A stretch of DNA of 64,000 bases, from contig JAHBUZ010000011.1 of the NCBI GenBank assembly GCA_019637815.1, positions 18,758 to 82,757 on the forward strand, written 5' to 3'. The notes under the pieces are model-generated. The model saw only the letters and a list, made by a program, of their open reading frames with translations, was not told the origin of the DNA and ran no database searches. How positions within the stretch are numbered: position 1 is the first letter of the stretch; the number at the start of each line of letters is the position of its first letter. Below, piece after piece: positions 8,077 to 60,448 of this stretch. Source of the stretch: Chloroflexota bacterium (GTDB taxonomy: Bacteria > Chloroflexota > Limnocylindria > Limnocylindrales > CSP1-4). The position numbers were made by a program, and so were the translations under genes.

Positions 8077-8149
8077 GTCGCTGCGATCTCCGATGGCCCG
8101 CTGATGCGGGTCATCCGCCCGCCAGCGACAACGCGCATCCTAGGCCATA

Positions 8150-8163
8150 GACAATCGCTTGTC
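8150..8163. promoter_or_regulatory. candidate LacI-type operator GACAATCGCTTGTC
   Basis: Inverted repeat (arms GACAA/TTGTC around a central CG) about 75 nt upstream of the CoA-transferase start. It is near-identical to the palindrome at 40615..40632. Confidence 0.35.
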
Positions 8164-8186
8164 GAGAGGGCGATCCAGCGTACCGG

Positions 8187-29258: not shown

Positions 29259-29560
29259 CGCGACACCTCCTGGTCGGCCCAGCTGGCGGGGTCGTTGGGA
29301 TGGGCGGCGAGCGGATGCACCGTCGCCACGAGATGCGGGAACATGGGCAGCGAGGCGAGCGCGGTGTGCAGCTCGGTCGCGTCCGCCGCGTGCCAGATGC
29401 CCCAGTTGGCGCGCTGGCCGGGGATACGCCAGAGACGCTTGAGCGTGCCGCTCGCGCCGAGCTCGCGGGCGCGCTGACCCTCCGCGGCGATCAGCCGCTG
29501 CTGCTCCTCGGGCGTGATGCCCGCCGGCCAGGTGAACGTGATGTGCACCAGGAAGTCCAT
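29255..29560 (-). CDS. muconolactone delta-isomerase-like small protein
   Basis: About 101 aa. The sequence MDFLVHITFTW...ATELHTALASLPMFPHLVATVHPLAAHP resembles the CatC/MIase fold. ATG at 29560 with a GAGGAG RBS. It overlaps the SDR start by GTGA. Confidence 0.5.
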   Translation of the reverse strand: MDFLVHITFTWPAGITPEEQQRLIAAEGQRARELGASGTLKRLWRIPGQRANWGIWHAADATELHTALASLPMFPHLVATVHPLAAHPNDPASWADQEVSR

Positions 29561-33921: not shown

Positions 33922-34431
33922 TCAGGGTGCGCCGATCCTCGCGGGTCGGCGCGCGACCGGGCGATCCACCTCGTCGACGACCGCGACCACGCGCCCGGTC
34001 TGATCGAGGCCGGTGATGGTCCGCGTCACCAGCCCGACGTCCGCCCGGGGGCCCTCGCGGACCACCTCGATGCGCGACTCGGCGACCAGGGTGTCGCCCG
34101 CCACCACGGGACCCGTCAGTCGGATCGATCGCCAGCCCGTGGCCCGCGTCGCGGCGGCCACCGATGGCGGCGGCACGGCGGGCTCGGCGAGCCCGATGAC
34201 GATCGCGGCGGTCAGCGCACCCAGCACGAGCGGCTCCCCGAACGCTCCCTGCGCGGCGGCATGCCGGTCGCCGTGGACGTCGCTCACGTTGTGGGTGACC
34301 CAGGCGAGCCAGACATGCTCCGAGTCATCGAGCGTCCGGCCATGCGCATGACGGATGACCACCCCCGGGACGGCGTCCTCGAACCACCAGCCGGTGTCGG
34401 CGCCCGCGATCACACGAGTCCCTGGCGCCAT
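33922..34431 (-). CDS. MaoC-like (hot-dog fold) dehydratase/hydratase, paralog 2
   Basis: Clear paralog of the MaoC protein at 43103..43669 (shared blocks GWWFEDAV..., VAGDTLVAESRIEVV). Start at ATG 34431 (alternative TTG 34455). Confidence 0.7.
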   Translation of the reverse strand: MAPGTRVIAGADTGWWFEDAVPGVVIRHAHGRTLDDSEHVWLAWVTHNVSDVHGDRHAAAQGAFGEPLVLGALTAAIVIGLAEPAVPPPSVAAATRATGWRSIRLTGPVVAGDTLVAESRIEVVREGPRADVGLVTRTITGLDQTGRVVAVVDEVDRPVARRPARIGAP

Positions 34432-34447
34432 CGCCGACCCGTCCGGG

Positions 34448-35587
34448 TCAGCCAAGGTCCGCGAGGATCCCGACCGGGTCGTCGTGGGGCTGGCTGCGCA
34501 CCCAGTCGATATCGACCATGTGACCGAAGCCCGGCAGCTCGGGGAGTGGCGCCATCAGCCCGCCATCGAGGATCACGGGCTGGGGCAAGGGGTCGTCCAT
34601 CGGGTGGACACCCGTGTCCGGGATACCCCACTCGATGGGTCGGTCGGCGTATCCCAGCGCAGCGAGGACCTGGCTGTGGACGTGCGGGAACATGTGGGGC
34701 GCGAAATCGAGACCCGCAGCGAGCGCCTGGTCGATGACCCGCCGACCGCGCGTCAGACCGCCCATGCAGGTGAGGTCGACCCGCACGACATCCACGGCGC
34801 CGGCCGCGATGAGGGCCTCCGGGAAGTAGCTGCCGCCCTGCTCATCGCCCATCGCGATGGGCACCTCGATGCGGTCGCGGAGCTGTCGCAGGATCCCCGC
34901 GTCCCCGGGCGGGAAGATGTCCTCGAACCAGCCCAGGCCCACGTCCGGGATGGACTCGATGAAGCTGGCCGCCGTCTCCACGTCCTCGTAGACCCACGCG
35001 GCGTCCATGCCCAGCCACGCGTCGGGTGCTGCGGCACGTGCCGCCCGCAGGCGCGCGGCGCTCCGCTCGGCGGCACCACCGATGGGTGCCTTGAAGCGGC
35101 GCCAGCCGGCCGCATACAGCACCGCGGTCTGGGCGCCGGTCTCCTCGGGCCCCATGGTGCCCGGCGGGTAGCCGATGATCGCGGTCGCTGGCATCGGCTC
35201 GTTGTGACCGCCGAGCAGGCCCGCGATGGACAGGTCACGCAGCTTCGCAGCGGCATCCCAGCAGGCGAGGTCCACGATGGACAGGGCACGCAGCCCGATG
35301 CCCGCCGCGTGCGATGCCAGGCTCCGACGCCATGCGACCGTGAACGTCCGCTCCCGGTCATCGATGGTCGTGCCCACGTACAGCGCCGCGATCGTCTTGC
35401 GGATCTGCTCCGCGACCGCGCCGTCACGGGTGAGCGTGTACATCAGGCCATCGACGCCCCGGTCGGTGCGCACCCGCACGAGCGCGAACTCGCGAGAGCG
35501 CATGATCCACTCGCCGAAGATGACCGGCGCGGGGAGCTGGGCCTGGATGGTCATCACGTCCACGGACGTGATGGTCGCGCTGGTCAT
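34448..35587 (-). CDS. enolase-superfamily protein (MR/MLE family; probable sugar-acid dehydratase), paralog 2
   Basis: Start MTSATITSVDVMT at 35587 with a GGAGGA RBS. Co-linear with paralog 1 (FGEWIMRSREF, KAPIG, MGDEQGGSY). Confidence 0.8.
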   Translation of the reverse strand: MTSATITSVDVMTIQAQLPAPVIFGEWIMRSREFALVRVRTDRGVDGLMYTLTRDGAVAEQIRKTIAALYVGTTIDDRERTFTVAWRRSLASHAAGIGLRALSIVDLACWDAAAKLRDLSIAGLLGGHNEPMPATAIIGYPPGTMGPEETGAQTAVLYAAGWRRFKAPIGGAAERSAARLRAARAAAPDAWLGMDAAWVYEDVETAASFIESIPDVGLGWFEDIFPPGDAGILRQLRDRIEVPIAMGDEQGGSYFPEALIAAGAVDVVRVDLTCMGGLTRGRRVIDQALAAGLDFAPHMFPHVHSQVLAALGYADRPIEWGIPDTGVHPMDDPLPQPVILDGGLMAPLPELPGFGHMVDIDWVRSQPHDDPVGILADLG

Positions 35588-35621
35588 GGGTCCTCCGGAG
35601 ACAGCGGGTGACGGAGCGCGC

Positions 35622-36449
35622 TCAGGCGCCCTCGTGGATCTGGGTCGAGCCGGCGCTGCTGGCCCAGGCGCCCTGGGCCAGGAAGCCACCATCGACGGCG
35701 AGATAGCCGCCGGTCATGAAGCTGGAGCGGTCGCTGGCCAGGAACAGCGTGGCCTGCGCGATGTCCTCCGGCAGGCCGAGACGGCCGAGCGGGTGGAAGG
35801 CGCCATAGCGTGCGAGCGTCGCATCGAGGTCGCCGCCCTCCGCGCGCGCCGCGGTCCGGACCATCTCCGAGTCCATGGTGCCCGGACAGATGGCGTTCAC
35901 ACGGATGCCGTCCCGCGCATAGTCGAGGGCCATGTTGCGGGTGAGCGAGAGCACGCCGCCCTTGCTCGCCGCGTACGAGGGGACGCCGGGCATCGACTGG
36001 ACACCCTGGACGCTCGCCATATTGATGACCGAGCCACCCGGTCCCTGCGCCCGGATGTGGGGCAGGGCGTACTTGGACATCAGGAACTGGCCCTTCAGGT
36101 TGACCCCCAGGATGCGATCCCAGACCTCCTCGGGGGTGTCCTCGACGCGGAAGTACCAGTCGACGGGCTGGATGCCCGCGTTGTTGACGAGCACGTCGAG
36201 CCGACCGAAGGCGGTGACCGTCTCGGCCACCATCCGCTGGGCATCCCCGGACGACGAGACATCGCCGATGGTCGCGATGGCTCGCACGCCGCCCGCTGCC
36301 AGCTCTGCCGCCAGGCGCTCCGCGGCGGCCCGGTCCACGTCCGCGATGGCGACCGACGCGCCTTCGCGCGCGAACGCTCGCACGATGCCCTGGCCGATGC
36401 CCAGGGCTCCACCGGTCACCAGGACGGCCCGGCCGTCGAACTCTCCCAT
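35622..36449 (-). CDS. SDR-family oxidoreductase
   Basis: AVLVTGGALGIGQG and YAASK motifs. ATG at 36449 with a GGAGG RBS. Confidence 0.8.
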   Translation of the reverse strand: MGEFDGRAVLVTGGALGIGQGIVRAFAREGASVAIADVDRAAAERLAAELAAGGVRAIATIGDVSSSGDAQRMVAETVTAFGRLDVLVNNAGIQPVDWYFRVEDTPEEVWDRILGVNLKGQFLMSKYALPHIRAQGPGGSVINMASVQGVQSMPGVPSYAASKGGVLSLTRNMALDYARDGIRVNAICPGTMDSEMVRTAARAEGGDLDATLARYGAFHPLGRLGLPEDIAQATLFLASDRSSFMTGGYLAVDGGFLAQGAWASSAGSTQIHEGA

Positions 36450-36469
36450 GTCAGCCTCCGGCGCCATGT

Positions 36470-37411
36470 TCAGTCTCCGATCTCGTCACGGGTGGGGTGG
36501 AAGAGCGGCTTGCCGACGAGCCCGGGGACCCGGAACCGGGTCACGTGCCAGCGCCCGATGTTGGGGGTCAGGATGACGTCCCGGTCGGGACCTGCGAACA
36601 CCACGTTGGTGGGTGCGGCCAGTGCGGTCCCCTCGGGGTCGTGGGCCAGCACCTGGAGCCCCAGGTCCGCACGCCAGCGATACACGACATCGGGCCGGTA
36701 GCACGCGATGACCACCGAGCCGTCCGTGGCGAAGGCGACGCCGTCGGGCACCGTGCCCGGCAGCTCCACCAGGAGCCGCCGTGGCCCCGCCGAGCCATCG
36801 GGCAGGATGTCGAACGCGACCAGCGCCCCGGGCGTGGACTCGAGGACCCATATCTCCTGGCCGTTCGGGTGGACCGCGAGACCGTTCGGGAAGTCCCGGC
36901 TCTCCCGGGTCCAGACGCTGGTGCGCTCCGTGGCAGGGCCGGCACCCGGCCGCACCACGATCACGCTGCCGTCCGGCTGCTTCCAGTGACCGGAGTCGGT
37001 GACATAGAAGCTGCCATCGGGCCCGAACGCGCCCCAGTTGGGTGTCACGAACGGGATGCCGGGTGCGCCGCTGGTCCAGGGAACGGGGTCCCCGCCACCG
37101 GGTGTCCAGCGCATGACCGCGCCGCGCTTGGGGTCACAGGCGTAGACACGCCCCTCCCCGTCCGTGGCGAGGCCCAGGGTCCAGCCGCCGGTCGTGGTCA
37201 CCTCGTGCGCGGTGCCGTCCTCGTCCACCCGGTAGATCTGGCCCTGCTCGCCGCTGACGTAGATGGTGCCGTCGGGCGCGACGCAGATCCCCTCCGCATG
37301 GTCGATACCCGCGGCGATCTGCTCCAGTGCGTCGAGCGCGATGATCGGCTCCATGGCTCCTCCCACCCGCCACCCGGGCTCGGCTGCGCGGTCCACGACG
37401 TGGCGACTCAT
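36470..37411 (-). CDS. SMP-30/gluconolactonase/LRE-family protein, paralog 3
   Basis: SGL beta-propeller repeats. The ATG at 37411 overlaps the permease stop by ATGA (alternative start MEPIIALD at 37354). Confidence 0.8.
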   Translation of the reverse strand: MSRHVVDRAAEPGWRVGGAMEPIIALDALEQIAAGIDHAEGICVAPDGTIYVSGEQGQIYRVDEDGTAHEVTTTGGWTLGLATDGEGRVYACDPKRGAVMRWTPGGGDPVPWTSGAPGIPFVTPNWGAFGPDGSFYVTDSGHWKQPDGSVIVVRPGAGPATERTSVWTRESRDFPNGLAVHPNGQEIWVLESTPGALVAFDILPDGSAGPRRLLVELPGTVPDGVAFATDGSVVIACYRPDVVYRWRADLGLQVLAHDPEGTALAAPTNVVFAGPDRDVILTPNIGRWHVTRFRVPGLVGKPLFHPTRDEIGD

Positions 37412-38241
37412 TGCTTGACCGCCCCCTCCGCCACGCCACGCTCGAACTGGCGGTGGAGCACCAGGTACAGGATGAACACAGGCACGGCCGCCATCAACAC
37501 CGCAGCGGCCACCAACTCGTGGGGCGTGCTGTACTGACCGATGAACTGGGCGATGCCGACCGGCAGGGTATACGTGCCCGCATCACGGAGCAGCACCAGC
37601 GCCAGGAAGTAGTCGTTCCAGCAGAACAGGAACGTCAGGATCGCGACCGTCGCGATCGGTGCCTTCGCGAGCGGCACGACGACGCCCAGGAGGATCCAGC
37701 GCTCCGAGGCCCCATCGATGCGGGCCGCCTCCAGGAGCTCCCGTGGGATCCCCGCGAAGAAGCTCCGCAGGATGAGGATGGACAGCGGCAGGCCGAACGC
37801 GACATAGACCAGGGACAGGCCGACGTGCGTGTCGTAGAGGCCCATCGTCCGGATCTCCACGAACAGCGGGATGATGACCGCCGCGGGCGGGATCATGAGC
37901 CCCAGGAGGATGAGCAGGAACAGCACCTCCGACCCCCGGAACCGGAGCCGGGCGAAGCCGTAGGCGGCGAGGACGCTCAGGGTGACCACGACGGCGACGG
38001 AGAGGCCCGTCACGACGATGCTGTTGAGGAACAGGCGCGCGAGACCGAACTGGCCCCATGCATCGGAGAAGTTCTCCGGCCGGAACGTGCCCGGGATGAC
38101 CGCCCGTGAGTAGACGTCCGCGCCGGTCCGGAGGGCGAGGCCCACGATCCACAGGATGGGCGCCATCGCCACCATCGCCGAAGCCAGCAGGAACGCGGAG
38201 ACACCGACCCGCCACGCCGGGTGCGTATAGCGGTCGATCAT
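37408..38241 (-). CDS. CUT1-type ABC sugar permease (MalG-like)
   Basis: EAA loop (RIDGASERW) with six TM helices. Confidence 0.8.
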   Translation of the reverse strand: MIDRYTHPAWRVGVSAFLLASAMVAMAPILWIVGLALRTGADVYSRAVIPGTFRPENFSDAWGQFGLARLFLNSIVVTGLSVAVVVTLSVLAAYGFARLRFRGSEVLFLLILLGLMIPPAAVIIPLFVEIRTMGLYDTHVGLSLVYVAFGLPLSILILRSFFAGIPRELLEAARIDGASERWILLGVVVPLAKAPIATVAILTFLFCWNDYFLALVLLRDAGTYTLPVGIAQFIGQYSTPHELVAAAVLMAAVPVFILYLVLHRQFERGVAEGAVKQ

Positions 38242-38283
38242 GGGTGGATCTCCGGCGGTTCGGCACGGCCACCCACGCGATGG

Positions 38284-39210
38284 TCATTCATGGAGACGCG
38301 ACCCCCAGCGGATGCGCAGCACGGCCGCGCCCACCGACAACGCCACGATGACCAGCGCGATGGCCGATGCGTAGCCCATGTCGCTGAACTTGAAGGCCTG
38401 CTCGTACATGTAGGTCGCCAGCACCTCCGTGCTCCGGTTGGGTCCGCCGCGGGTCATGACGTACACCAGGTCGAACACGCGCAGACCACCGATGACGTTG
38501 AGCAGGATTGCGGTGCCGATGACCGGATACAGACCGGGCACGACCACGTGGCGGATGCTGGCACGGGCGCCCGCCCCGTCGATGGATGCCGCCTCGAGCT
38601 GGTCGCGTGGCAGGTTCTGGAGACCGGCGTAATAGAGCAGCATGTTGTAGCCCGTGAACTGCCACACCGTGGCCACGATCACGGACGTCAGCGCGAGGTC
38701 AGGGTCACCCAGGAACAGCGTCGGTCGGGCCGTGGGGCTCACGAGCGAGATGAGCTGGTTGACGGCCCCGAACGCATCCAGGATGCGGGTCCACATGAGC
38801 GCCACGATCACGGGTGACAGGAGGACCGGCAGGAACAGCACGGACTTCACCAGGCCGCTGCCACGCACCCGCGACGCGATGAGCAGCGCGTAGAGGAAGC
38901 CCGTGATGTTCAGGAGCACCGTGGTCGCCACGGTGAACAGGATCGTGTGTGTGAACGAGCGCCAGAACACCGGGTCCGCGGCGGCCTTCTGGAACTTGGC
39001 GAGGCCCACGAAGGTCCAGTCGCCGATGCGGAAGCCCGCCCACTCCAGGAACGCGATGCCCGCTACCGCGAACACCGGCACCATCAGGAACAGGCAGAAG
39101 ATGATGACGCTGGGCAGCACGAAGGCGAGCCCGAGCCGGCCGGGTGTGACCGACCGACGAGGACTCGCGATCGACGCGGTCACGGATGGTCGCGGTGATG
39201 CGGCTGCCAT
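38284..39210 (-). CDS. CUT1-type ABC sugar permease (MalF-like)
   Basis: MalF-type topology (NLPRDQLEAASIDGAG). Confidence 0.8.
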   Translation of the reverse strand: MAAASPRPSVTASIASPRRSVTPGRLGLAFVLPSVIIFCLFLMVPVFAVAGIAFLEWAGFRIGDWTFVGLAKFQKAAADPVFWRSFTHTILFTVATTVLLNITGFLYALLIASRVRGSGLVKSVLFLPVLLSPVIVALMWTRILDAFGAVNQLISLVSPTARPTLFLGDPDLALTSVIVATVWQFTGYNMLLYYAGLQNLPRDQLEAASIDGAGARASIRHVVVPGLYPVIGTAILLNVIGGLRVFDLVYVMTRGGPNRSTEVLATYMYEQAFKFSDMGYASAIALVIVALSVGAAVLRIRWGSRLHE

Positions 39211-39243
39211 CCGGATACCGGTGTGGTGGTCGGTGGCGGATGC

Positions 39244-40539
39244 CTACTGCGCGCCGGCCGAGACCATCGCCTCGATGACCGTGCTGCCGGGCTGTCCGTC
39301 CATGACGCCCTGCATCGCGTTCAGCAGCTCCGCGTAGACCTGCGTCGTGTAGATGACGCGGCTGTTGGCGGTGGCCTGCGCGGTCACCATGTTGTTGTAC
39401 AGCTCGCTCTTGTCCGCGGGCACCGGGAAGTCCCAGGACGGGATGAAGTCGTTGGCGACGAGCGCGGCGCCGCCGCCATCGTCCACGAGGTAGCGCAGGA
39501 ACTCGATCGCCTCCTCCTGGTGGGCGCAGTCAGCCGTGACCACGAACATCTCGGCGATGCCGCCCGTGGCCCGGTTGTCGAGCGTGCTGCCGTCCGGCTT
39601 GGGGAACGGGAACAGACTCCACTCGAAGGCATCGCCCACCTTGTCCGCGACGCCCGCCGTGACGAAGTTGCCGACCGGGTACATCATCCCGGCGGCTCCG
39701 CTTGCGAACAGGTCGAGGTTGCCCACGAACGCGTCCATGGAGTTGGCGCCGGGCGCGAAGATGCCACTCGCGACCATGGCGGCCACGTTGTCCGCCGCGG
39801 CAGCGAAGGCCGGGTCATCCCAGCCGACCTCGCCGGCATCCGCCTGCGCGAGCTTGCTGTTGGTGCCGTCCGTGTAGGCCACCTGGGCGAAGAACAGGTC
39901 GCCCGCGGACCACCGGTCCCGGGTGCCCATGGCGATGCCGAACAGGCCCTGCTCACCCAGCGCATCCACGGCGGCCTGGAGCTCACCCTGTGTCTGGGGG
40001 ACCTCCAGGCCCAGCTCGTCGAACCGGGTCTTGTTGTAGGCGATCTGGAGCGTGTTCACGTCCAGGGGGATCGCCCAGACCTCGCCGCCGATGCTCACCG
40101 CGTCCACGATGGGCTCGAAGAACGCCGGGAAACCGGTGGTGATCGCCTGGGTCAACGGGATCAGCTCGCCACTGTTCACGAAGTCCCGGAACTCGCCGGC
40201 CCACGGGATCTGGGCGATGCAGGGTGGCTCATCCGCCGCGATCGCGGCTCGGAACCGCGTCAGGTAGTCGGTGAAGCTCAGGTAGATGACGCCGCATGCG
40301 TCACCACAGTTCGACTGGCCACGCTTCACCGTGACGCCCGGATGGTCCGCCTCGAAACGCACGATGGCGTCCTCGTGGACCAGGGGGTACGCGCCTTCGT
40401 TGTTCCAGGACCACATCTCCAGCTCGATGGGGTCCTGCGCGTTCGCCGCGGGGGTCACGGCCAAGGTCCCCACCAGGACCGTGCCCATGACGAATGCCGA
40501 CCGCCGCCGGGTCGTACTGCCGTGTGTCCGCCTTGCCAT
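39244..40539 (-). CDS. CUT1 extracellular solute-binding protein (family 1)
   Basis: Start MARRTHGSTTRRRSAFVMGTVLVGTLAVTPAANAQD at 40539 with a GAGGAGG RBS 7 nt upstream. Signal peptide plus an SBP_bac_1-like domain. Confidence 0.8.
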   Translation of the reverse strand: MARRTHGSTTRRRSAFVMGTVLVGTLAVTPAANAQDPIELEMWSWNNEGAYPLVHEDAIVRFEADHPGVTVKRGQSNCGDACGVIYLSFTDYLTRFRAAIAADEPPCIAQIPWAGEFRDFVNSGELIPLTQAITTGFPAFFEPIVDAVSIGGEVWAIPLDVNTLQIAYNKTRFDELGLEVPQTQGELQAAVDALGEQGLFGIAMGTRDRWSAGDLFFAQVAYTDGTNSKLAQADAGEVGWDDPAFAAAADNVAAMVASGIFAPGANSMDAFVGNLDLFASGAAGMMYPVGNFVTAGVADKVGDAFEWSLFPFPKPDGSTLDNRATGGIAEMFVVTADCAHQEEAIEFLRYLVDDGGGAALVANDFIPSWDFPVPADKSELYNNMVTAQATANSRVIYTTQVYAELLNAMQGVMDGQPGSTVIEAMVSAGAQ

Positions 40540-40614
40540 CCGGCGTCCTCCTCGGTGCCCGTCCGCGGCGCGCCAAGGGCCGCCGTCAGCGGGTTCGGGC
40601 AGGAGGTTGATCCC

Positions 40615-40632
40615 TTGACAATCGATTGTCAA
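40615..40632. promoter_or_regulatory. perfect 18-bp palindrome TTGACAATCGATTGTCAA (candidate LacI-type operator)
   Basis: Perfect inverted repeat with a central CG, 76 nt upstream of the CUT1 SBP start (minus strand) and about 177 nt upstream of the plus-strand lipoyl gene. The same core occurs at 8150..8163. Confidence 0.4.
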
Positions 40633-40808
40633 TATGGGATCGTTCGCCCGGGACGGCATCGACGGCTCGGCGAGCGGGAACGATCCCGGCCTGGCAGCCG
40701 CATGCCCGATCCGGGTCGGAGGCGACGCCGGTATCATCCGGGAACGCGTGCTCCGATGGTGCGACACGCGCCCGCGACGACCCCACCCGAGGCCCACAGG
40801 AGGTTCCC

Positions 40809-41054
40809 ATGGCACGTATCCCGATCGAGATGCCCCGCATGGGCTACGACATGGAGACCGGCACCATCGCCGCCTGGGTGAAGCAGGTCGGTGACAGCGT
40901 GTCGCGCGGCGATGTGCTCGCGGAGATCGAGACCGAGAAGTCCACCGTGGAGATGGAGGCGCTCGCCGCCGGCACCCTCGTGGAGCAGACGCTGGCCCCC
41001 GGCCAGGAGGTCCCGGTGGGCACGGTCATCGGCTATCTCGACGACGGCCAGTAG
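40809..41054 (+). CDS. stand-alone lipoyl-attachment domain protein (81 aa)
   Basis: Sequence MARIPIEMPRMGYDMETGTIAAWVKQVGDSVSRGDVLAEIETEKSTVEMEA is a canonical lipoyl domain with the lipoyl-lysine in ETEKS. It ends at a TAG stop. A CAGGAGG RBS precedes the ATG. Confidence 0.75.
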   Translation: MARIPIEMPRMGYDMETGTIAAWVKQVGDSVSRGDVLAEIETEKSTVEMEALAAGTLVEQTLAPGQEVPVGTVIGYLDDGQ

Positions 41055-41070
41055 GATCCACGAACCGACG

Positions 41071-41808
41071 ATGGCGGACGGACGACACCCGGTCACCTTC
41101 TCCCGGATGCGCGAGGCGATCGCGCGACGGATGGTCCAGAGCAAGACCCAGGCACCCCACTTCTATGTCTCCCGCGATCTGGCGATGGACGCGGCGCTCG
41201 ATGCGCTCGCGACCCTCAACGCTGACCGACCGAAGGAGCAGCGGGCGAGCGTCACCGCGCTGCTGTTGCGGGCCATGGCCTCGACGCTCGCCGCGGCGCC
41301 CGCGTTCAACGCGGTCTGGGAGGGCGACACGCTGGTGCGCGTGGATGCCATCAACCTGGGGGTCGCGATCGACCTCGGCGAGGGCGGCCTGATCGCACCC
41401 GCGCTGCTCGATTGCGGCAGCAAGTCGGTGGACCAGCTGGGCAGCGAGCTGCGGGACCTCGCGGAGCGGGCTCGCGCGGGCAAGCTGCGCGCCCCGGAGA
41501 TCGCCGAGGGCACGTTCACGCTCACCAACCTGGGCATGTTCGGGGTGACCAGCTTCACGGCCATCATCACGCCGCCCCAGGTGGCCACGCTCGCCACGGG
41601 CGCCACGGAGGCACGCCCGGTGGTCCGGGATGGCGCCGTGGTGGTCCGCTGGATGATGACCGCGACGCTCTCCGCCGACCATCGCGCGGTGGACGGCGCC
41701 GGGGCTGCGCGGCTGCTCGCCGATCTCCAGGCACGCCTCGATGACGCGGCCGGCTGGGTGGGCGCGACCTCGGACGCCTTCGCCGCGGATGCGGCGGGGC
41801 CGACGTGA
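41071..41808 (+). CDS. stand-alone 2-oxoacid dehydrogenase acyltransferase (E2) catalytic-domain protein
   Basis: Start MADGRHPVTFSRMREAIARRM, 16 nt after the lipoyl gene stop. E2 catalytic core with the active-site DHRAVDG. No peripheral subunit-binding domain is encoded between or within the two genes. Confidence 0.75.
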   Translation: MADGRHPVTFSRMREAIARRMVQSKTQAPHFYVSRDLAMDAALDALATLNADRPKEQRASVTALLLRAMASTLAAAPAFNAVWEGDTLVRVDAINLGVAIDLGEGGLIAPALLDCGSKSVDQLGSELRDLAERARAGKLRAPEIAEGTFTLTNLGMFGVTSFTAIITPPQVATLATGATEARPVVRDGAVVVRWMMTATLSADHRAVDGAGAARLLADLQARLDDAAGWVGATSDAFAADAAGPT

Positions 41809-43106
41809 GCAGCGCGGACGGACGCCCGCTGCCGGACCTCGACGCCGCGGTCGCGCTCGCTGACGCACGCAACCGGGCCCTGCGCGAGGAGCTGGCACCC
41901 CGCCAGGCACGTCTGCCGCTCCGCTACTGGCGACAGCAGGCGCATTTCACGACGCCTGCGGAGGCCGCCATGGCCCGCAAGGCCGTGGAGGGCGGCACCG
42001 CGCCCATGGCGCGCATCCTCGAGCGCTTCGAGGTCGGTCCGGCGATGCTCGCCGACCGGCTCGGCGTGGGCGTGGACGCGATCGAGCGGCTGCTGGCGGC
42101 TCCCCGGCGCGCGCCCATGGTGATGCTCGATGCGGAGGACGCCCTCGCGCTCACGGACGCGGCTGCCGCCCAGGCGCGTCTGGATGCCGCGGATATCCTC
42201 GCGACGGCCGACTGGAGTGGCGGCGGACCACCCAGCCTGCGCTTCTACCGGCCACCGGGCCTGGCGCTGGGCTCCACGGCCCGCGAGCTGTACGGGCTCC
42301 TGTGGCGGCTCGTGGAGGCATCTCCGGACGGTCGGATCCCGCTCGACGGCATCGTGTTCCCCAAGATCGAGCATCCCGAGGAGGTGGACCTGGTCCACGG
42401 CATGCTCACGGAGGCCGAGCGCTCGCTGGGGCTGCCGGTCGGCGGCATCCGGGTCGCGTACCTGGTGGAGTCGGGATGGGCGGCGGCCCAGCTGGCGGAC
42501 CTCGCGCAGCGCGCCGCCGATCGGCTGTGTGCCCTCGTCTTCGGGCTCGCGGACTACTCCGCGGACGTCGGCCTGCCGTCCATCGCCAACGAGCATCCGC
42601 TCGCGGACTGGGCCCGCGCCACGATCGTGGACGTCGCCGGCGCGGTGGGCGTGCCCGCCATCGATGGCATGACCCTCGACTACCCGGTCGCCGACCCGGC
42701 ACTCGATGGTCCGGCCAATCGTGTCCGGTTCCTCGATCGGATGCAGCTCGTCTACCGCGATGCCGTCCGGGCCCGGGACTTCGGCATGCTCGGCAAGTGG
42801 GTGGGTCATCCGGCCCAGCTGTTCGCGGTGCTGCTGGCGTACGAGACGGGCTTCACGGACGCTGCGCTGGAGGCGGAGGCGGCCAAGCTGGCCGCGTACG
42901 ACACCGCGGTCCACCAGGAGGGCAGGGGCGCCACGATGATCGCGGGTGTCATGTCCGACCGGGCGACCGACCGCCACGCGCGGGTGGTCCTCCGCCAGGC
43001 GACGGCGCTGGGGCGGTTCGACCCGGCCCGGGCGCTCGCCCTCGGGGTCATCGATGCCGATGAGCTGGCCGACGCACAGGACGCATGGCGAGGTGGACCC
43101 GCATGA
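41805..43106 (+). CDS. HpcH/HpaI-aldolase/CitE-family acyl-CoA lyase (malyl-CoA/citramalyl-CoA-lyase-like)
   Basis: GTG start overlaps the E2 stop by GTGA. Carries the CitE-family MLDAEDA motif and is about 430 aa long. Confidence 0.8.
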   Translation: MSSADGRPLPDLDAAVALADARNRALREELAPRQARLPLRYWRQQAHFTTPAEAAMARKAVEGGTAPMARILERFEVGPAMLADRLGVGVDAIERLLAAPRRAPMVMLDAEDALALTDAAAAQARLDAADILATADWSGGGPPSLRFYRPPGLALGSTARELYGLLWRLVEASPDGRIPLDGIVFPKIEHPEEVDLVHGMLTEAERSLGLPVGGIRVAYLVESGWAAAQLADLAQRAADRLCALVFGLADYSADVGLPSIANEHPLADWARATIVDVAGAVGVPAIDGMTLDYPVADPALDGPANRVRFLDRMQLVYRDAVRARDFGMLGKWVGHPAQLFAVLLAYETGFTDAALEAEAAKLAAYDTAVHQEGRGATMIAGVMSDRATDRHARVVLRQATALGRFDPARALALGVIDADELADAQDAWRGGPA

Positions 43107-43669
43107 CCGACGAGCCCGGGGCGGACGTCCCGACCACCCAGGACGGCGCCGCGGCATCGGACGGTCCCACCGCCCCGGATGCCCCGGCGACCCGGCGTGT
43201 GGTCGGCTGGGAGGGCCGCTTCCTCGATGACTTCCAGGTCGGCGACGTGTACCGCCACTCGCACGGCCGGACCATCACCCAGACGGACAACACCTGGTTC
43301 ACGCTGCTCACCAACAACACCCACGACGTCCACTACAACGTGGACTACGCATCCCGGACCGAGTTCGGCAAGCCGCTCGTGGTGTCCACCCTGACACTGG
43401 CCATCGTCACGGGTCTGTCCGTGGAGGACGTCAGCCGCAACGCGGTCGCCAACCTCGGCTGGGAGCAGGTCCGCTGCCCGGCACCCGTATTCGCCGGTGA
43501 CACCCTGTATGCCGAGACGGAGGTCCTGGACGTCCGACCGTCGCGGTCCCGGCCCGGCCAGGGCATCGTGCGGGTGCGCACCCGAGGGCTCAACCAGGAC
43601 GGCACGGTCGTCATGGAGTTCGAGCGGAGCGTCCTCGTCTACAGCCGGGCGTCCCGGCCCGGCGCCTGA
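43103..43669 (+). CDS. MaoC-like enoyl-CoA hydratase/dehydratase (hot-dog fold), paralog 1
   Basis: ATG overlaps the CitE stop by ATGA. MaoC-dehydratase fold blocks (AGDTLYAETEVLDVRPS). Confidence 0.8.
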   Translation: MTDEPGADVPTTQDGAAASDGPTAPDAPATRRVVGWEGRFLDDFQVGDVYRHSHGRTITQTDNTWFTLLTNNTHDVHYNVDYASRTEFGKPLVVSTLTLAIVTGLSVEDVSRNAVANLGWEQVRCPAPVFAGDTLYAETEVLDVRPSRSRPGQGIVRVRTRGLNQDGTVVMEFERSVLVYSRASRPGA

Positions 43670-43678
43670 CCTCCGGCG

Positions 43679-44611
43679 ATGGGCGGGCGCATCGTCGTCG
43701 GCGGTGAGAGCCTCGTCGATCGCATCCGGACCGTCGACGGGAGCGTCCGGGACGTGCCCGGGGGCGGGCCCTACAACACCGCTCGGGCCCTTGGTCGCCT
43801 GGGGCTCGGGACGGCGTTCCTGGGCTGCATCTCGACCGATGCGCTGGGTGGGACGCTGCTCACGGGTCTCATCGATGACGGCGTGATCACGGACCTGGTG
43901 ACCCGGACGGATGCGCCGACCACGCTCGCCCTCGCCGACCTCGATGCGTCGGGCACGGCGCGCTACACCTTCCTCGTGGACGGCACGGCGGCACCCCGGG
44001 TGACCCGGGAGGACGCCCTCCGGGCGCTGGATGGCGAGGTCGCGGCGATCCACGTGGGGACCCTGGGGCTCGTGTTCCAGCCCGTGTCGGACAGCCTCGA
44101 GGCGCTCGTCGCGGCGGCACCCCCGGACACGCTCGTGATGCTCGACCCGAACGCCCGACCGTCGGCGACCCCGGATCTCGCCGCGTGGCGCGCACGCGTC
44201 GGCCGACTCGCTCGCCGGGCGGACATCATCCGCGCGAGCACCGACGACCTCACCACCCTCGACGACCGCCGGGACCCCGTCGCCGTCGCTCGCGGCCTCG
44301 CCATGGATGGAGCGCTGGTGCTCCTCACGGACGGCGGGCGACCCATCAGGCTCGTGTCGCGGGCGTTCCCGCCGACGGAGCTGCCACTCCTGGGGGGCCC
44401 CGTCGTGGACACGGTCGGGGCGGGGGATTCGTTCGGCGCCGCGTTCCTCGGCTGGCTGCTGGACCACGGCCTCGATCGTGGCGCCCTCGAGGACCCGGGC
44501 CCGGTCCACGGCGCGGCTCGCGTGGCGCTCGCTGCCGCCGCGATCACCTGTTCCCGACGCGGCGCCGACCCGCCGACCCGCGCCGAGCTCGACGCGGCGT
44601 GGCACGCCTGA
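43679..44611 (+). CDS. PfkB-family carbohydrate kinase (fructokinase/2-keto-3-deoxygluconate-kinase-like)
   Basis: Ribokinase-superfamily motifs including the C-terminal DTVGAGDSF anion-hole. Confidence 0.8.
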   Translation: MGGRIVVGGESLVDRIRTVDGSVRDVPGGGPYNTARALGRLGLGTAFLGCISTDALGGTLLTGLIDDGVITDLVTRTDAPTTLALADLDASGTARYTFLVDGTAAPRVTREDALRALDGEVAAIHVGTLGLVFQPVSDSLEALVAAAPPDTLVMLDPNARPSATPDLAAWRARVGRLARRADIIRASTDDLTTLDDRRDPVAVARGLAMDGALVLLTDGGRPIRLVSRAFPPTELPLLGGPVVDTVGAGDSFGAAFLGWLLDHGLDRGALEDPGPVHGAARVALAAAAITCSRRGADPPTRAELDAAWHA

Positions 44612-44635
44612 GGCGGACGGACCCCAGCCCTCGCG

Positions 44636-57742: not shown

Positions 57743-60448
57743 TCAGTGCTCCAGCGCGAAGGGCGCATCCGGGTCCACACCGAGCGTCCGGATGGCATCC
57801 CGTGCCTCCTCCGCCGGCAGCCCGCCGCAACGTGCGAGGCCCGCCAGGGTGGCGGCCACGATGTGCTCCGTATCGACGCCGAAGAAGCGTCGGAGCGCCT
57901 CGCGCGTGTCGCTGCGCCCGAACCCATCGGTGCCCAGGCTGGTCCATGCCTCCGGCGCGACCCAGCGGCTGACCATGTCCGGCCACGCCCGGATCCAGTC
58001 GCTGACCGCGATCACGGGACCGCGCCCGGCCGGCTCGGCGAGGAGCTGCGCGACCACCGGGACGCGCCGCGGCTCACCCGGATGGAGCAGGTTCCAGTGC
58101 TCCGCCGCGAGCGCCTCGTTGCGCAGCAGCTGGTAGGACGTGGCGCTCCAGATGTCCGCCGCGACGCCGAAGCGCTCGGCCAGGACGGTCTGGGCACGCA
58201 GCGCCTGCTGCATGATCGACCCACCCGACAGGATGGTGGCGCGAGGTGCGTTGGCGGGCAGCCCGCTCGCCTCGCGGAAGCGGTAGAGACCACGCACGAT
58301 GTCCGCGTCCGTGACCCCGTCGGGCCGGGCGGGCATCACGTGGTTCTCGTTGTACAGCGCGAGGTAGTACAGCAGGTCCTCCGGCTGGTCCCCGTACATC
58401 CGCTCGATGCCGTCGTGGATGATGGCCGCGGTCTCGTACGCGAAGGCCGGGTCATAGGCGCGCATCGTGGGGATGGTCGAGGCGAGGACCAGGCTGTGAC
58501 CGTCCTCGTGCTGGAGCCCTTCCCCATTGAGCGTCGTGCGACCGGCCGTCCCGCCAAGCAGGAAGCCACGGGCACGTGCGTCCGCCAGCAACCAGATCTG
58601 GTCGCCCGTCCGCTGGAAGCCGAACATGGAATAGAAGATGTAGAACGGGATCATCGGTTCCGCGTGGGTCGCGTACGAGGTGCTGGCGGCCTGGAGCGAT
58701 GCGGTGGATCCCGCCTCGGTGATGCCCTCCTCGAGCACCTGGCCGTCGGTCGCCTCCCGGTAGGACAGCACCAGGTTGGAGTCCACGGGCTCGTAGCGCT
58801 GCCCCAGCGGCGCGTAGATGCCCACCTCCTTGAACAGGGGGTCGAGGCCGAACGTGCGTGCCTCGTCCGGGATGATGGGCACCACGCGCTTGCCCACGCC
58901 CGGGTCGCGGATGAGATCACGCAGGAGCCGTGCGAAGGCCATCGTGGTGGACGCCTCCTGCGTCCCCGACCCGGCGTCGAAGGCACCGAACACCTTGGCG
59001 GGCGGCAACTCCAGCGGGCTGGACACCACCACCCGACGGGGGGTCGGGCCACCAAGGGCGGCGCGCCGCTCCAGCAGGTAGCGGATCTCCGGGGCGTCGT
59101 CGGCGGGCCGGTAGTACGGCGCCTCCTTGAGCTGCGCATCGGGGATGGGCAGCTGGAGCCGATCGCGGAAGACGCGCAGCTCCTGCTCGTTGAGCTTCTT
59201 GGCCTGGTGGGTGATGTTGCGTGCCTCGATGCCCGGACCGAGCATCCAGCCCTTGACGGTCTGGGCGAGGATCACCGTCGGTCGACCCTGTTCCTGGGTC
59301 GCCGCCCGATACGCCGCGTACAGCTTCCGGTAGTCGTGGCCGCCCCGCCGGAGCGACTTGATCTGGTCGTCCGTGAGATCCTCGACGAGCGACAGCAGCC
59401 GCGGGTCCCGGCCGAAGAAGTGCTCCCGGATGTACGCCCCCGATTCGACGGTGTACTTCTGGGATTCGCCATCGAGGACGTCACCCATGCGCTGCACGAG
59501 CACGCCGTCCACGTCCCGCGCCAGGAGCGCATCCCACTCGCGACCCCAGATCACCTTGATGACGTTCCAGCCGGCGCCCCGGAAGATCGACTCCAGCTCC
59601 TGGACGATCTTGCCGTTGCCGCGGACCGGGCCATCGAGCCGCTGGAGGTTGCAGTTGACGACGAAGGTCAGGTTGTCCAGCTGGTCGCGGGCCGCCAGCG
59701 AGAGCGCGCCGGTCGACTCCGGCTCGTCCATCTCGCCATCGCCCAGGAACGCCCAGACCCGGCTGCCACTGGTGTCCTTGATGCCCCGCTGGTGGAGATA
59801 GCGGTTGAAGCGTGCTTGGTAGATGGCCGCCAGGGGCCCGAGCCCCATCGAGACCGTGGGGAACTCCCAGAAGTCGGGCATGAGGCGGGGGTGCGGGTAC
59901 GAGCTGAGCCCTTCGCCCGGCACCACCTCCTGGCGGAAGTGGTCGAGCTGGTCCTCCGTGAGCCGACCCTCCAGGAAGGCGCGCGCATAGATGCCGGGTG
60001 CTGCGTGGCCCTGGAAGAAGACCTGGTCGCCCATGCCGGGTGCGTCCTTGCCCCGGAAAAAGTGGTTGAAACCGACCTCGTACAGGCTCGCCGCGCTCGC
60101 GTAGGTCGCGAGGTGGCCACCGATGCCCGGCGAGACCGCGTTGGCCCGCAGGACCATGGCCACCGCGTTCCAGCGGACCATGCGTCGGATGCGCAGCTCC
60201 ATCTCCTCGTCACCCGGGAACAGTGGCTCCTGCTCGGGCGAGATGGTGTTGATGTAGCGCGTCTGGGTGAGCGCGGGCAGGCCGATGTCCAGCTGTCGCG
60301 CCCGCTTGAGCAGGCGGTACAGCACGAACCGGGCACGGCCGATGCCGTCGTTCTGGACGAGGGACTCGAGCGAGGCGATCCAGTCCTCGGTCTCGGCAGG
60401 GTCGCGGTCAGGGAGCTGCCGCTTGAAGTCGGCGTCGTGGTCGATCAT
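57743..60448 (-). CDS. aceE: pyruvate dehydrogenase E1 component, homodimeric type
   Basis: About 900 aa with strong similarity to AceE throughout (MIDHDADFKRQLPDRDPAETEDWIASLESL...). ATG at 60448. Confidence 0.9.
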   Translation of the reverse strand: MIDHDADFKRQLPDRDPAETEDWIASLESLVQNDGIGRARFVLYRLLKRARQLDIGLPALTQTRYINTISPEQEPLFPGDEEMELRIRRMVRWNAVAMVLRANAVSPGIGGHLATYASAASLYEVGFNHFFRGKDAPGMGDQVFFQGHAAPGIYARAFLEGRLTEDQLDHFRQEVVPGEGLSSYPHPRLMPDFWEFPTVSMGLGPLAAIYQARFNRYLHQRGIKDTSGSRVWAFLGDGEMDEPESTGALSLAARDQLDNLTFVVNCNLQRLDGPVRGNGKIVQELESIFRGAGWNVIKVIWGREWDALLARDVDGVLVQRMGDVLDGESQKYTVESGAYIREHFFGRDPRLLSLVEDLTDDQIKSLRRGGHDYRKLYAAYRAATQEQGRPTVILAQTVKGWMLGPGIEARNITHQAKKLNEQELRVFRDRLQLPIPDAQLKEAPYYRPADDAPEIRYLLERRAALGGPTPRRVVVSSPLELPPAKVFGAFDAGSGTQEASTTMAFARLLRDLIRDPGVGKRVVPIIPDEARTFGLDPLFKEVGIYAPLGQRYEPVDSNLVLSYREATDGQVLEEGITEAGSTASLQAASTSYATHAEPMIPFYIFYSMFGFQRTGDQIWLLADARARGFLLGGTAGRTTLNGEGLQHEDGHSLVLASTIPTMRAYDPAFAYETAAIIHDGIERMYGDQPEDLLYYLALYNENHVMPARPDGVTDADIVRGLYRFREASGLPANAPRATILSGGSIMQQALRAQTVLAERFGVAADIWSATSYQLLRNEALAAEHWNLLHPGEPRRVPVVAQLLAEPAGRGPVIAVSDWIRAWPDMVSRWVAPEAWTSLGTDGFGRSDTREALRRFFGVDTEHIVAATLAGLARCGGLPAEEARDAIRTLGVDPDAPFALEH

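Follow-up and report, generated by a model that had tools for sequence, protein, structure and literature searches.

In a 64-kb stretch of DNA (~71% G+C) from a Limnocylindria genome of the phylum Chloroflexota (contig JAHBUZ010000011.1, positions 18,758 to 82,757; hereafter the window), the lipoyl domain and the catalytic core of a 2-oxoacid dehydrogenase E2 component are encoded as two separate proteins, LIP and E2c. 2-Oxoacid dehydrogenases are the textbook example of a tethered multienzyme machine, in which E2 serves as scaffold and swinging arm at once. In the window the two E2 genes head a string of five co-directional genes at 40809-44611, in which they are followed by enzymes acting on esters of coenzyme A (CoA) and by a sugar kinase. 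All the evidence presented here is comparative sequence analysis. Related loci were fetched as 10 kb on either side of database matches and are numbered with an L; they are phylogenetically related, and counts of them are not counts of independent events. The five genes are the following.

40809..41054, plus strand: LIP, a free-standing lipoyl carrier protein of 81 aa (PF00364)
41071..41808, plus strand: E2c, an E2 catalytic core only, 245 aa (PF00198)
41805..43106, plus strand: LYA, a CoA-ester C-C lyase of the CitE / malyl-CoA lyase / malate synthase superfamily, 433 aa
43103..43669, plus strand: a MaoC-fold (R)-specific enoyl-CoA hydratase, 188 aa
43679..44611, plus strand: a PfkB-family sugar kinase, 310 aa (PF00294), the last gene of the string

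A sequence-only reading of this DNA had described a lipoyl domain and a catalytic core in separate genes 16 nt apart, and both the coordinates and the Pfam matches agree with it; the two genes lie in different frames, and an AGGAGG ribosome-binding site is found 7 nt 5′ of LIP. The overlaps it had noted towards the lyase and hydratase genes were likewise confirmed: the GTG start of the lyase overlaps the E2c stop in GTGA at 41805-41808, and the ATG of the MaoC gene overlaps the lyase stop in ATGA at 43103-43106. The MaoC stop and the PfkB start are 9 nt apart. Genes were called with a home-made codon-usage caller trained on this data; the gene clusters used below are home-made as well, and both were checked against third-party calls. 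All five were called by the trained caller and by the third party on two independent Logan assemblies, their coding-potential scores were high, and the lyase was 100% identical to the protein KF809_10110 [Chloroflexi bacterium] of an NCBI metagenome-assembled genome (MAG). The recurrence of the gene structure in the two Logan assemblies, together with the identical lyase in the NCBI MAG, shows that it is not an assembly error. Sigma-70 promoter and intrinsic terminator scans of 40300-44800 returned nothing, which is uninformative for a Chloroflexota genome of 71% GC.

The sole domain above the Pfam cut-off in LIP was PF00364 (Biotin_lipoyl, 57.5 bits). The predicted lipoyl-lysine is K44 in the motif E41-T-E-K44-S, and the ETEKS noticed earlier in the 81-aa protein is thus in place. 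K44 was kept in 62 of 63 distinct LIP sequences, in which the motif reads ET[ED]K[SA]T. The best matches of LIP were the lipoyl domains of AcoC, pyruvate dehydrogenase (PDH) E1beta and E2, and with PF00364 and a lysine in an E-T-[DE]-K-[AS] context it is predicted to be an E2-type lipoyl domain. The glycine-cleavage H protein and GcvH-like proteins are likewise small, separately encoded lipoylated carriers that visit several enzymes; LIP, however, belongs to the E2-type Biotin_lipoyl family and not to GCV_H, and its identity as GcvH was rejected on a PF01597 score of 18.4 bits, below the cut-off of 22.2. A biotin carrier was ruled out by the domain and family matches and the conserved ET[ED]K[SA]T motif.

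E2c matched PF00198 alone (229.8 bits, profile positions 7-228). The DHRAVDG motif, also pointed out earlier, is found at residues 203-209 with the catalytic H204 and D208, and both residues, as well as the oxyanion Thr/Ser motif TFTL[ST]NLG, are invariant in 24 members of the E2c family. The catalytic domain thus has PF00198, the His and Asp of DHRxxDG and the Ser/Thr oxyanion residue of the E2 family. The lipoyl domain that this family carries on the same chain is here a separate open reading frame (ORF), and the E2c chain is also without a linker and without a peripheral subunit-binding domain (PSBD). The closest family was the mitochondrial/alpha-proteobacterial type of PDH E2 (TIGR01349, 196.6 bits, under the equivalog cut-off), and an AlphaFold2 model of the monomer (pLDDT 76) matched E2 cores at TM scores of 0.64-0.70.

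That no PSBD or linker is encoded had been claimed from the letters alone, and the claim held in Pfam and in a purpose-built search. Hidden Markov model searches of both proteins with Biotin_lipoyl, E3_binding and 2-oxoacid_dh gave no E3_binding match (PF02817, E <= 0.1) in LIP or E2c. A PSBD profile was then built from canonical E2 relatives; by this profile, 118 of the 150 nearest representatives carry a PSBD. Run against the six-frame translations of the 64-kb window and 88 related loci it found nothing significant, and it was positive in control canonical E2 genes, including those beside more distant E1 genes. One control deserves a separate description. The database entry P0287 (241 aa), seemingly 'core-only', is a miscalled or frameshifted canonical E2 (L168:4998-6726), with a lipoyl domain and a PSBD just upstream in overlapping frames and then lpd, lipB and lipA. 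Short E2 entries in the databases are therefore not all true split E2s. A PSBD hidden in a small separate ORF, or fused elsewhere, was considered and rejected, since the six-frame search was negative and L168 shows that hidden PSBDs are detectable.

The C-terminus of E2c is also divergent. Canonical relatives end in a hydrophobic run (-LRLLL, -ITMLL etc.), and this C-terminal hydrophobic 'knob' is the knob-and-socket contact between trimers of E2 cores (bioRxiv 10.1101/2020.07.24.212647). A C-terminal run of at least three residues from LIVMF was present in 63 of 89 canonical tails compared with 2 of 142 split-family tails, in which one conserved Trp is followed by Ala or polar residues in variable length. 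As the hydrophobic run is missing, the E2c core may not assemble beyond trimers, its inter-trimer contacts having probably been lost. The oligomeric state is in this way something we infer, and the domain content, the absence of a PSBD, the degenerate C-terminus, the conservation of the split and the gene linkage are read directly.

Compared with the canonical E2 of the PDH, branched-chain 2-oxoacid and 2-oxoglutarate dehydrogenase (OGDH) complexes, and in particular with mitochondrial/alpha-proteobacterial PDH with its E1 alpha and beta subunits, LIP and E2c have the same lipoyl and CAT-like folds, the same catalytic His, Asp and Ser/Thr and the same ETxK hairpin. They differ in being two chains, in having no flexible linker and no PSBD and in the degenerate knob of the 24-/60-mer. 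Two architectural properties of an E2, the single chain and the PSBD, are thus missing, and the assembly helix is doubtful; lacking PSBD, linker and single chain, the pair cannot dock E1 and E3 in the known way. The actinobacterial enzymes (bioRxiv 10.1101/2020.07.24.212647; PMC10415282) provide two partial precedents. The trimeric E2p is one for a core below the 24/60-mer, and OdhA, in which E1o is fused to an E2-like domain and borrows lipoyl domains in trans, is one for a lipoyl domain that is not attached. In E2p, however, the lipoyl domains and the PSBD stay on the chain and assembly is blocked by a Phe-containing 3-residue insertion, neither of which applies here: the actinobacterial-type insertion is not present in E2c and was ruled out as the cause of a reduced core.

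The split is widely conserved. The 120 best homologues of E2c were 61-93% identical to it, and all of them were 194-312 aa long and contained PF00198 only. A scan of one genome per species returned 225 relatives, the best 80 of which belong almost exclusively to Limnocylindria, with the addition of one Acidimicrobiia MAG. In 74 of 77 loci, the gene immediately upstream of E2c and co-directional with it was a separate lipoyl ORF of ~80 aa, with a gap of -4 to 68 nt (median 8); the three loci without it look like local gene-calling or assembly problems. In an exhaustive search, the next-nearest proteins after the split family were full-length E2s of 389-595 aa and 42-52% identity, and in a neighbour-joining tree the split family was monophyletic beside the canonical PSBD-bearing E2s. 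On this comparison, a split E2 without a PSBD is a character conserved within a monophyletic family. The conservation of the split, the invariant catalytic residues and the lack of a PSBD in any frame show that it is neither decay nor error, and the earlier statement that this is not a simple frameshifted E2 stands; nor are the homologues pseudogene remnants in which the split is not conserved. The explanation that the pair is a decaying remnant of a normal E2, or an artefact of assembly or gene calling, can point to P0287 as proof that such cases exist. It has against it the independent assemblies, the recurrence in 74 of 77 loci from many species, the conserved catalytic residues and lipoyl-lysine, the negative six-frame search and the high coding potential, and it was ruled out with a probability close to nil.

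The gene overlapping E2c encodes a lyase matching PF03328 (HpcH_HpaI, 58.8 bits), PF22484 (DUF6986, 69.7 bits) and the PF01274 TIM barrel of malate synthase (40.4 bits); it is of the DUF6986 type and has an N-terminal extension of ~95 aa. Its motifs LDAEDA, VESG, GLADYSA and GKWVGHPAQ align with malyl-CoA lyase. The fold neighbours of its AlphaFold2 model (pLDDT 91.5) were malyl-CoA lyases, CLYBL, the trifunctional Chloroflexus/Roseiflexus Mcl and malate synthases; the five best of these matches had target-normalised TM scores of 0.73-0.81. Domains, motifs and fold thus all place the protein in the CitE / malyl-CoA lyase / malate synthase superfamily. Its scores were below the NCBIfam equivalog cut-offs for citE (TIGR01588, 38.5 vs 443), malyl-CoA lyase (Halo, 69.4 vs 500) and RipC (59.6 vs 375). 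Judged by sequence and modelled fold, it is a distinct DUF6986-type subfamily, nearer to the malyl-, citramalyl- and beta-methylmalyl-CoA lyases than to the citrate lyase beta subunit. The earlier label 'CitE lyase' is accordingly right as to the superfamily and probably misleading as to citrate lyase beta. A literature search on DUF6986 found nothing relevant. An HpcH/HpaI-type pyruvate aldolase acting on free 2-keto-3-deoxy acids was rejected as a candidate: the protein had no NCBIfam aldolase match, no such aldolase was among its top 50 PDB fold matches, and its fold neighbours were all CoA-ester enzymes.

The MaoC protein matched PF01575 (69 bits) and MC_hydratase and has the MaoC fold. 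It scored 207 bits, under a cut-off of 340, against the RipB/Ich family NF038241, spanning profile positions 14-169 of 175, and 125.8 bits against the beta-methylmalyl-CoA dehydratase (mesaconyl-CoA hydratase) structure 8hgn. These scores make itaconyl-CoA hydratase (RipB/Ich) and mesaconyl-CoA hydratase its closest counterparts. The kinase matched PF00294 over residues 5-299 (106.5 bits) and no equivalog, the best NCBIfam family being fructokinase (86.1 bits, cut-off 450). In the operon of the window, E2c is the only enzyme that forms a CoA thioester.

When all genes of the loci were clustered, LIP and E2c were the constant unit. The neighbourhood proposed from the window alone was partly retained in this comparison: LIP next to E2c as given above, the lyase and hydratase in about half of the loci, and the kinase hardly anywhere. 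The 433-aa lyase followed the pair co-directionally in 27 of 58 loci with enough downstream sequence. A 487-aa protein (P8), the lyase and MaoC were found together in 19 of these, the lyase and MaoC as in the window in 5, and P8 and the lyase in 2; the remaining locus had no P8, and its MaoC-cluster gene was missed within the four downstream genes scanned. In several loci the pair is fully translationally coupled to orthologues of the window MaoC. A further 23 of the 58 loci were of the Limnocylindrus type, in which the pair is followed by PdxH and a peptide transporter, and 8 had other contexts. Apart from the window and its two duplicate assemblies, PfkB was a neighbour in a single close relative (L008), and it was rejected as part of the conserved unit.

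P8 lies between E2c and the lyase in about 22 loci (L003:881-2344; also L002, L009-L011 and L016, among others) and is absent from the window. The only similarity it showed was to the N-terminal domain of neutral ceramidase, a faint one that did not reach the cut-off. At L013:8411-10618, P8 and E2c read as one ORF of 735 aa, by fusion or by a frameshift at the 4-nt overlap. Upstream of LIP, a gene of the muconolactone isomerase family (~100 aa, PF02426, 104.9 bits; e.g. L002:3309-3611) was the immediate divergent neighbour in 22 of 48 non-Limnocylindrus-type loci, these being the ones with a gene called directly upstream of LIP. The copy of PF02426 in the window is at 29255-29560, 11 kb from LIP. 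Beside the muconolactone isomerase gene, L074:8053-9180 and 14 other loci have a Cys-rich protein of 375 aa (P27), which had no Pfam, NCBIfam or PDB match and also adjoins the genes for E1 alpha and beta in the metagenome contigs L105, L106 and L113. Corrinoid methyltransferase genes (clusters 46, 47, 38 and 39) were found near LIP operons in L016, L022, L039 and L054. In L170:3098-7607 and L171:2296-7565, genes of this kind (URO-D/MtaA-like, B12-binding, pterin-binding and RACo activase) lie beside an operon with E1 alpha and beta; a link to the demethylation of a methylated substrate is possible. Precomputed Pfam hits indicate that the SufB homologue at L002:16106-18535 contains an inserted intein bearing a LAGLIDADG endonuclease domain.

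The window contains a single E1 gene.

57743..60448, minus strand: aceE, a homodimeric-type pyruvate dehydrogenase E1 of 901 aa (PDH_E1_M, 286.8 bits; TIGR00759, 1336.6 bits)

It lies 13.1 kb beyond the operon, a distance previously put at 14 kb, and no E2 or E3 (aceF, lpd) lies beside it; its neighbour at 55297-57681 on the minus strand encodes a 794-aa protein with a glucose/sorbosone dehydrogenase (GSDH) domain. The absence of any other E1 and of an E3 from the window was confirmed. No E3 was found in any split-E2 locus either, with an Lpd query that detects E3 in control loci. It is possible that AceE is an alternative user of the free lipoyl protein. As a conserved neighbour it was rejected, being absent from all 87 other split-E2 loci.

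An aceE without its own E2 might be taken to mean that LIP and E2c are a general housekeeping E2, common to AceE and any other E1, and that the lyase and hydratase are adjacent for convenience and take over no metabolite from it. The 30 streamlined freshwater loci of the Limnocylindrus type fit this, as the pair persists there with PdxH and a peptide ABC transporter as its neighbours and with lyase, hydratase and all other CoA-ester genes missing, and a free lipoyl protein could in principle serve several E1s, in the way that OdhA of corynebacteria relies in trans on lipoyl domains belonging to E2p. The absence of aceE from the other loci, the GTGA/ATGA coupling in the window and the co-directional linkage to the lyase argue otherwise. 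So does the neighbour-joining tree, in which the PdxH/Limnocylindrus type is a single derived clade and the deepest branches are occupied by members in operons with E1 alpha and beta, MaoC and dehydratase genes. A shared housekeeping E2 is improbable on this evidence.

The E1 that recurs with the split pair is of the heterotetramer type (E1ab), with best scores for PDH E1alpha 'y' (334.6 bits) and PDH E1beta (298.6 bits), both below the cut-offs; the JGI names of the E1beta orthologues alternate between PDH and acetoin oxidoreductase. E1ab was linked to the split pair in at least 10 related loci. The order is E1a-E1b-LIP-E2c in L087, MaoC-LIP-E2c-E1a-E1b with overlapping genes in L102 and LIP-E2c-MR_MLE dehydratase-E1a-E1b in L094, and E1ab is divergent from or near LIP-E2c in L005, L024, L026, L063 and L083. 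Orthologues of the window MaoC, 68% and 62% identical to it, lie inside the E1ab/LIP/E2c operons of L102 and L100. In three long-read MAGs, E1beta orthologues were located on the same contigs as L047, L067 and L077, 39-49 kb from the pair. The operon at that distance reads LacI (reverse), then E1a, E1b, MR_MLE, a glyoxalase-fold gene, an SGL lactonase, a short-chain dehydrogenase/reductase (SDR) and an ABC transporter (forward). A metagenome scan for E1beta of at least 55% identity (L088-L113) found a canonical E2 in 0 of 26 loci, compared with an E2 with lipoyl domain and PSBD in 22 of 54 loci, a few of them cut at the contig end, for E1beta of 42-51% identity. In the loci with close E1beta the usual order, in at least 10 of them, was E1a-E1b-MR_MLE with translational coupling. 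In L112, E1b and MR_MLE read as a single ORF of 731 aa, which is a genuine fusion or else results from an indel where the two genes usually overlap in ATGA. The E1ab operons of L169-L171 contained no aldolase.

With an E1ab clade in the operon with, or near, the split pair, the system is probably not without an E1, and probably represents a real 2-oxoacid dehydrogenase with untethered parts. It had been proposed from the sequence that the pair is a dedicated shuttle coupled to an acyl-CoA lyase pathway in place of a classical PDH or OGDH complex. The co-operonic CoA-ester enzymes and the translational coupling to MaoC do fit a dedicated catabolic role better than a tethered PDH/OGDH, and this half of the proposal can be kept; its E1-free half is at odds with the linked E1ab. 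In its strict form, E2c would operate in a reverse or exchange mode between CoA and the free dihydrolipoyl protein, for example buffering or reducing acyl groups that come from the lyase. In its favour, E2 catalysis is freely reversible, and the window and most of the loci encode neither E1ab nor E3. Set against this are the E1ab genes linked in at least 10 loci and found on the same contig in three more genomes, and an operon that shows no apparent reductase or other consumer of an acylated lipoyl protein; we also know of no precedent for an E1-independent acyl shuttle. The shuttle is on balance very improbable.

Upstream of LIP, the operon faces a divergent sugar operon at 33922..40539 across a palindrome, and a related palindrome precedes a CoA-transferase gene near the start of the window. 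These features are as follows.

39244-40539, minus strand: CUT1-type sugar-binding protein, divergent operon
38284-39210, minus strand: permease, divergent operon
37408-38241, minus strand: permease, divergent operon
36470-37411, minus strand: SGL-type lactonase, divergent operon
35622-36467, minus strand: SDR sugar dehydrogenase, divergent operon
34448-35587, minus strand: enolase-superfamily acid-sugar dehydratase, divergent operon
33922-34413, minus strand: second MaoC paralogue, end of the divergent operon
40615..40632, no strand: perfect 18-bp palindrome TTGACAATCGATTGTCAA, LacI-family-operator-like, in the divergent promoter region between the sugar operon and LIP
6808-8076, minus strand: family III CoA-transferase (cluster 52, the same family as the CoA_transf_3 gene of L005)
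5654-6670: LacI-family regulator gene, just downstream of the CoA-transferase gene

By clustering, positions 1-40000 of the window are a sugar-catabolic island with 3 LacI-family regulators, 6 SDRs, 3 SGL-type lactonases, 2 enolase-superfamily dehydratases and several ABC sugar transporters. These dehydratases are similar to acid-sugar dehydratases and are 50-56% identical to two of L094, one of which lies between E2c and E1a there. The second MaoC is 38-41% identical to orthologues of the operon MaoC and scored 76.4 bits against RipB/Ich; odd in a sugar pathway, it hints at CoA-ester intermediates. The divergent layout of sugar operon and LIP is also found in L013 and L066, and the two operons are probably functionally linked.

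A copy of the palindrome with 3 mismatches is located at 8148-8165, intergenic and upstream of the CoA-transferase gene 32 kb away, where 0 copies were expected by chance. Upstream of LIP, the palindrome was kept with at most 4 mismatches in four relatives with the same divergent layout (L013, L011, L066 and L008), a level of similarity reached in 5 of 2000 random segments. From its sequence and position the palindrome is likely to be a shared operator, and its presence at the CoA-transferase gene and its conservation upstream of LIP suggest one regulon. The CoA-transferase scored 221.2 bits against succinyl-CoA:mesaconate CoA-transferase, below the equivalog cut-off, and a mesaconate-CoA-transferase-like family III enzyme of this kind recurs near the module. 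In L073 and L076, a block of LacI, CoA-transferase, glyoxalase and MR_MLE genes abuts the LIP operon. By Pfam, no CoA-transferase is present inside the LIP operon of the window.

Taken together, LIP and E2c may be the E2 component of a dismantled 2-oxoacid dehydrogenase that feeds acyl-CoA derived from sugar acids to the hydratase and the lyase, a reading to which we give even chances. For this genome we infer the E1 partner, the substrate and the direction of flow. Judging from the gene context, sugar would enter through the neighbouring ABC transporter, and the SDR, lactonase and dehydratase encoded with it would convert it oxidatively to a 2-keto-3-deoxy sugar acid. A thiamine diphosphate-dependent E1, which would be the PDH/acetoin-like E1ab clade seen in relatives and not in this window, would take this acid directly, in place of an aldolase, decarboxylate it and reductively acylate the lipoyl group on K44 of free LIP. 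E2c, with H204, D208 and the Thr/Ser oxyanion residue, would pass the acyl group to CoA, and an E3 encoded elsewhere would reoxidise the dihydrolipoyl form of LIP, all steps proceeding without docking. The hydroxyacyl-CoA would then be converted by the MaoC hydratase and the malyl-CoA-lyase-like enzyme to acetyl-CoA and a carbonyl compound; the family III CoA-transferase would belong to the same regulon, and PfkB would be a lineage-specific addition. A 2-keto-3-deoxy sugar acid or a related hydroxy-oxo-diacid made by the dehydratase is favoured as the E1 substrate because E1ab is coupled to a dehydratase in operons without an aldolase and because E2c is the sole thioester-forming enzyme. By way of illustration only, a pentaric acid could be converted through 4-hydroxy-2-oxoglutarate and malyl-CoA to acetyl-CoA and glyoxylate, which would fit the nearest relatives of the lyase.

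Several observations weigh against this reading. The 64-kb window contains neither E1ab nor E3, and its sole E1 is AceE; among E2c-centred loci, E1ab is within 10 kb in only 6 of 82. The 30 Limnocylindrus-type loci have the pair among housekeeping-like genes and lack lyase, hydratase and sugar genes in its vicinity. Lyases of the CitE superfamily normally release a 2-oxoacid (glyoxylate, pyruvate or oxaloacetate), and as a simple deoxy-aldonyl-CoA would yield none, the pathway would have to include additional steps or to start from a dicarboxylic sugar acid. The recurrent CoA-transferase could supply the substrates of lyase and hydratase without an E2. Finally, LIP, E2c and E1ab all score best against PDH and acetoin families, which fits plain acetyl transfer equally.

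The last two points lead to another explanation, in which the enzyme is an ordinary acetyl-transferring one of the PDH/acetoin type with a split E2. The CoA-transferase would activate a C4/C5 dicarboxylate, MaoC and the lyase would convert it to acetyl-CoA and pyruvate, as in itaconate and mesaconate degradation, and E1, LIP and E2c would oxidise that pyruvate or pyruvate from sugar acids. The best families of E2c and both E1 subunits and the JGI names of the E1beta orthologues agree with it, as do the RipB/Ich score of MaoC, the mesaconate score of the CoA-transferase, the position of the lyase near the malyl-, citramalyl- and beta-methylmalyl-CoA lyases, and the CoA-transferase genes recurring near the module, one of them sharing the palindrome of the window. 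All these family scores are, however, below the NCBIfam equivalog cut-offs, and a CoA-transferase was found within 10 kb in only 4 of 53 LIP-E2c-(P8)-LYA-MaoC loci. E1ab is moreover coupled to an acid-sugar dehydratase in operons that have no aldolase to make pyruvate, and acetyl transfer gives no clear reason for a pyruvate-specific E2 to be coupled to a hydratase rather than to central metabolism. We regard it as unlikely, though as a serious competitor to the sugar-acid reading.

The nearest known counterparts of the window MaoC and lyase are the Ict-Ich-Ccl/RipABC enzymes of itaconate degradation and the mesaconyl-CoA hydratase and malyl-CoA lyase of the 3-hydroxypropionate bi-cycle and the methylaspartate cycle, and a family III CoA-transferase similar to mesaconate CoA-transferase recurs near the module. 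They differ from the Ict-Ich-Ccl system in the scores below equivalog level, the extra N-terminal part of the lyase and the CoA-transferase, which is usually outside the operon with LIP and E2c in its place. A comparable gene neighbourhood is that of M. tuberculosis Rv2495c-Rv2499c, with bkdABC beside citE (Rv2498c) and the MaoC-like Rv2499c. Rv2498c is a beta-hydroxyacyl-CoA lyase (PMC6689899). There, too, 2-oxoacid dehydrogenase genes stand beside a CitE-family lyase and a MaoC, and the acyl-CoA made by E2 ends in the hydratase and lyase. In M. tuberculosis, however, E2 is of the canonical type, and an acyl-CoA dehydrogenase and a carboxylase act between it and the hydratase; its lyase is a CitE of ~270 aa in a leucine/itaconate context, compared with the 433-aa DUF6986 type in a context of sugar oxidation here.

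Non-phosphorylative sugar pathways employ a sugar dehydrogenase, a lactonase and an acid-sugar dehydratase, followed by an aldolase, by a dehydratase and a dehydrogenase, or by a C4-dehydrogenase and a hydrolase. Their upstream set (ABC transporter, SDR, SGL or Amidohydro_2 lactonase and enolase-superfamily dehydratase) is the same as that found here, whereas the E1ab operons have no aldolase or KdgD-type enzyme and couple a thiamine diphosphate-dependent E1 to the dehydratase. We tentatively propose, at somewhat less than even chances, that Limnocylindria and a few other lineages have a fourth, CoA-dependent fate for 2-keto-3-deoxy sugar acids. These acids would be oxidatively decarboxylated by a non-assembled 2-oxoacid dehydrogenase, made up of the dehydratase-coupled E1ab, a lipoyl protein that is free and an E2 core that has no PSBD and is probably trimeric, and the resulting hydroxyacyl-CoA would go on to MaoC and the new lyase, in replacement of an aldolase. 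In the searchable literature, neither a split PSBD-less E2 nor a 2-oxoacid dehydrogenase branch of oxidative sugar catabolism was found described, and searches there on split or stand-alone lipoyl and E2 proteins and on PDH in Limnocylindria returned nothing relevant.

The actinobacteria show that the E2 scaffold can shrink, and the Limnocylindria, abundant in lakes and soils, seem to have gone further, with a separate arm, no docking domain and a degenerate assembly motif. An untethered E2 throughout a class is likely to surprise structural enzymologists, and the current labels 'pyruvate dehydrogenase E2' and 'citrate lyase beta' for these proteins are probably both misleading. If the proposed reading is true, a 2-oxoacid dehydrogenase can work as freely diffusing parts. 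Should the parts indeed work together, they would provide a natural experiment on the importance of tethering and channelling and a minimal, modular pair of E2 and lipoyl carrier for engineering, and they may point to a hitherto unrecognised pathway in which sugar acids are turned into acetyl-CoA by way of CoA thioesters.

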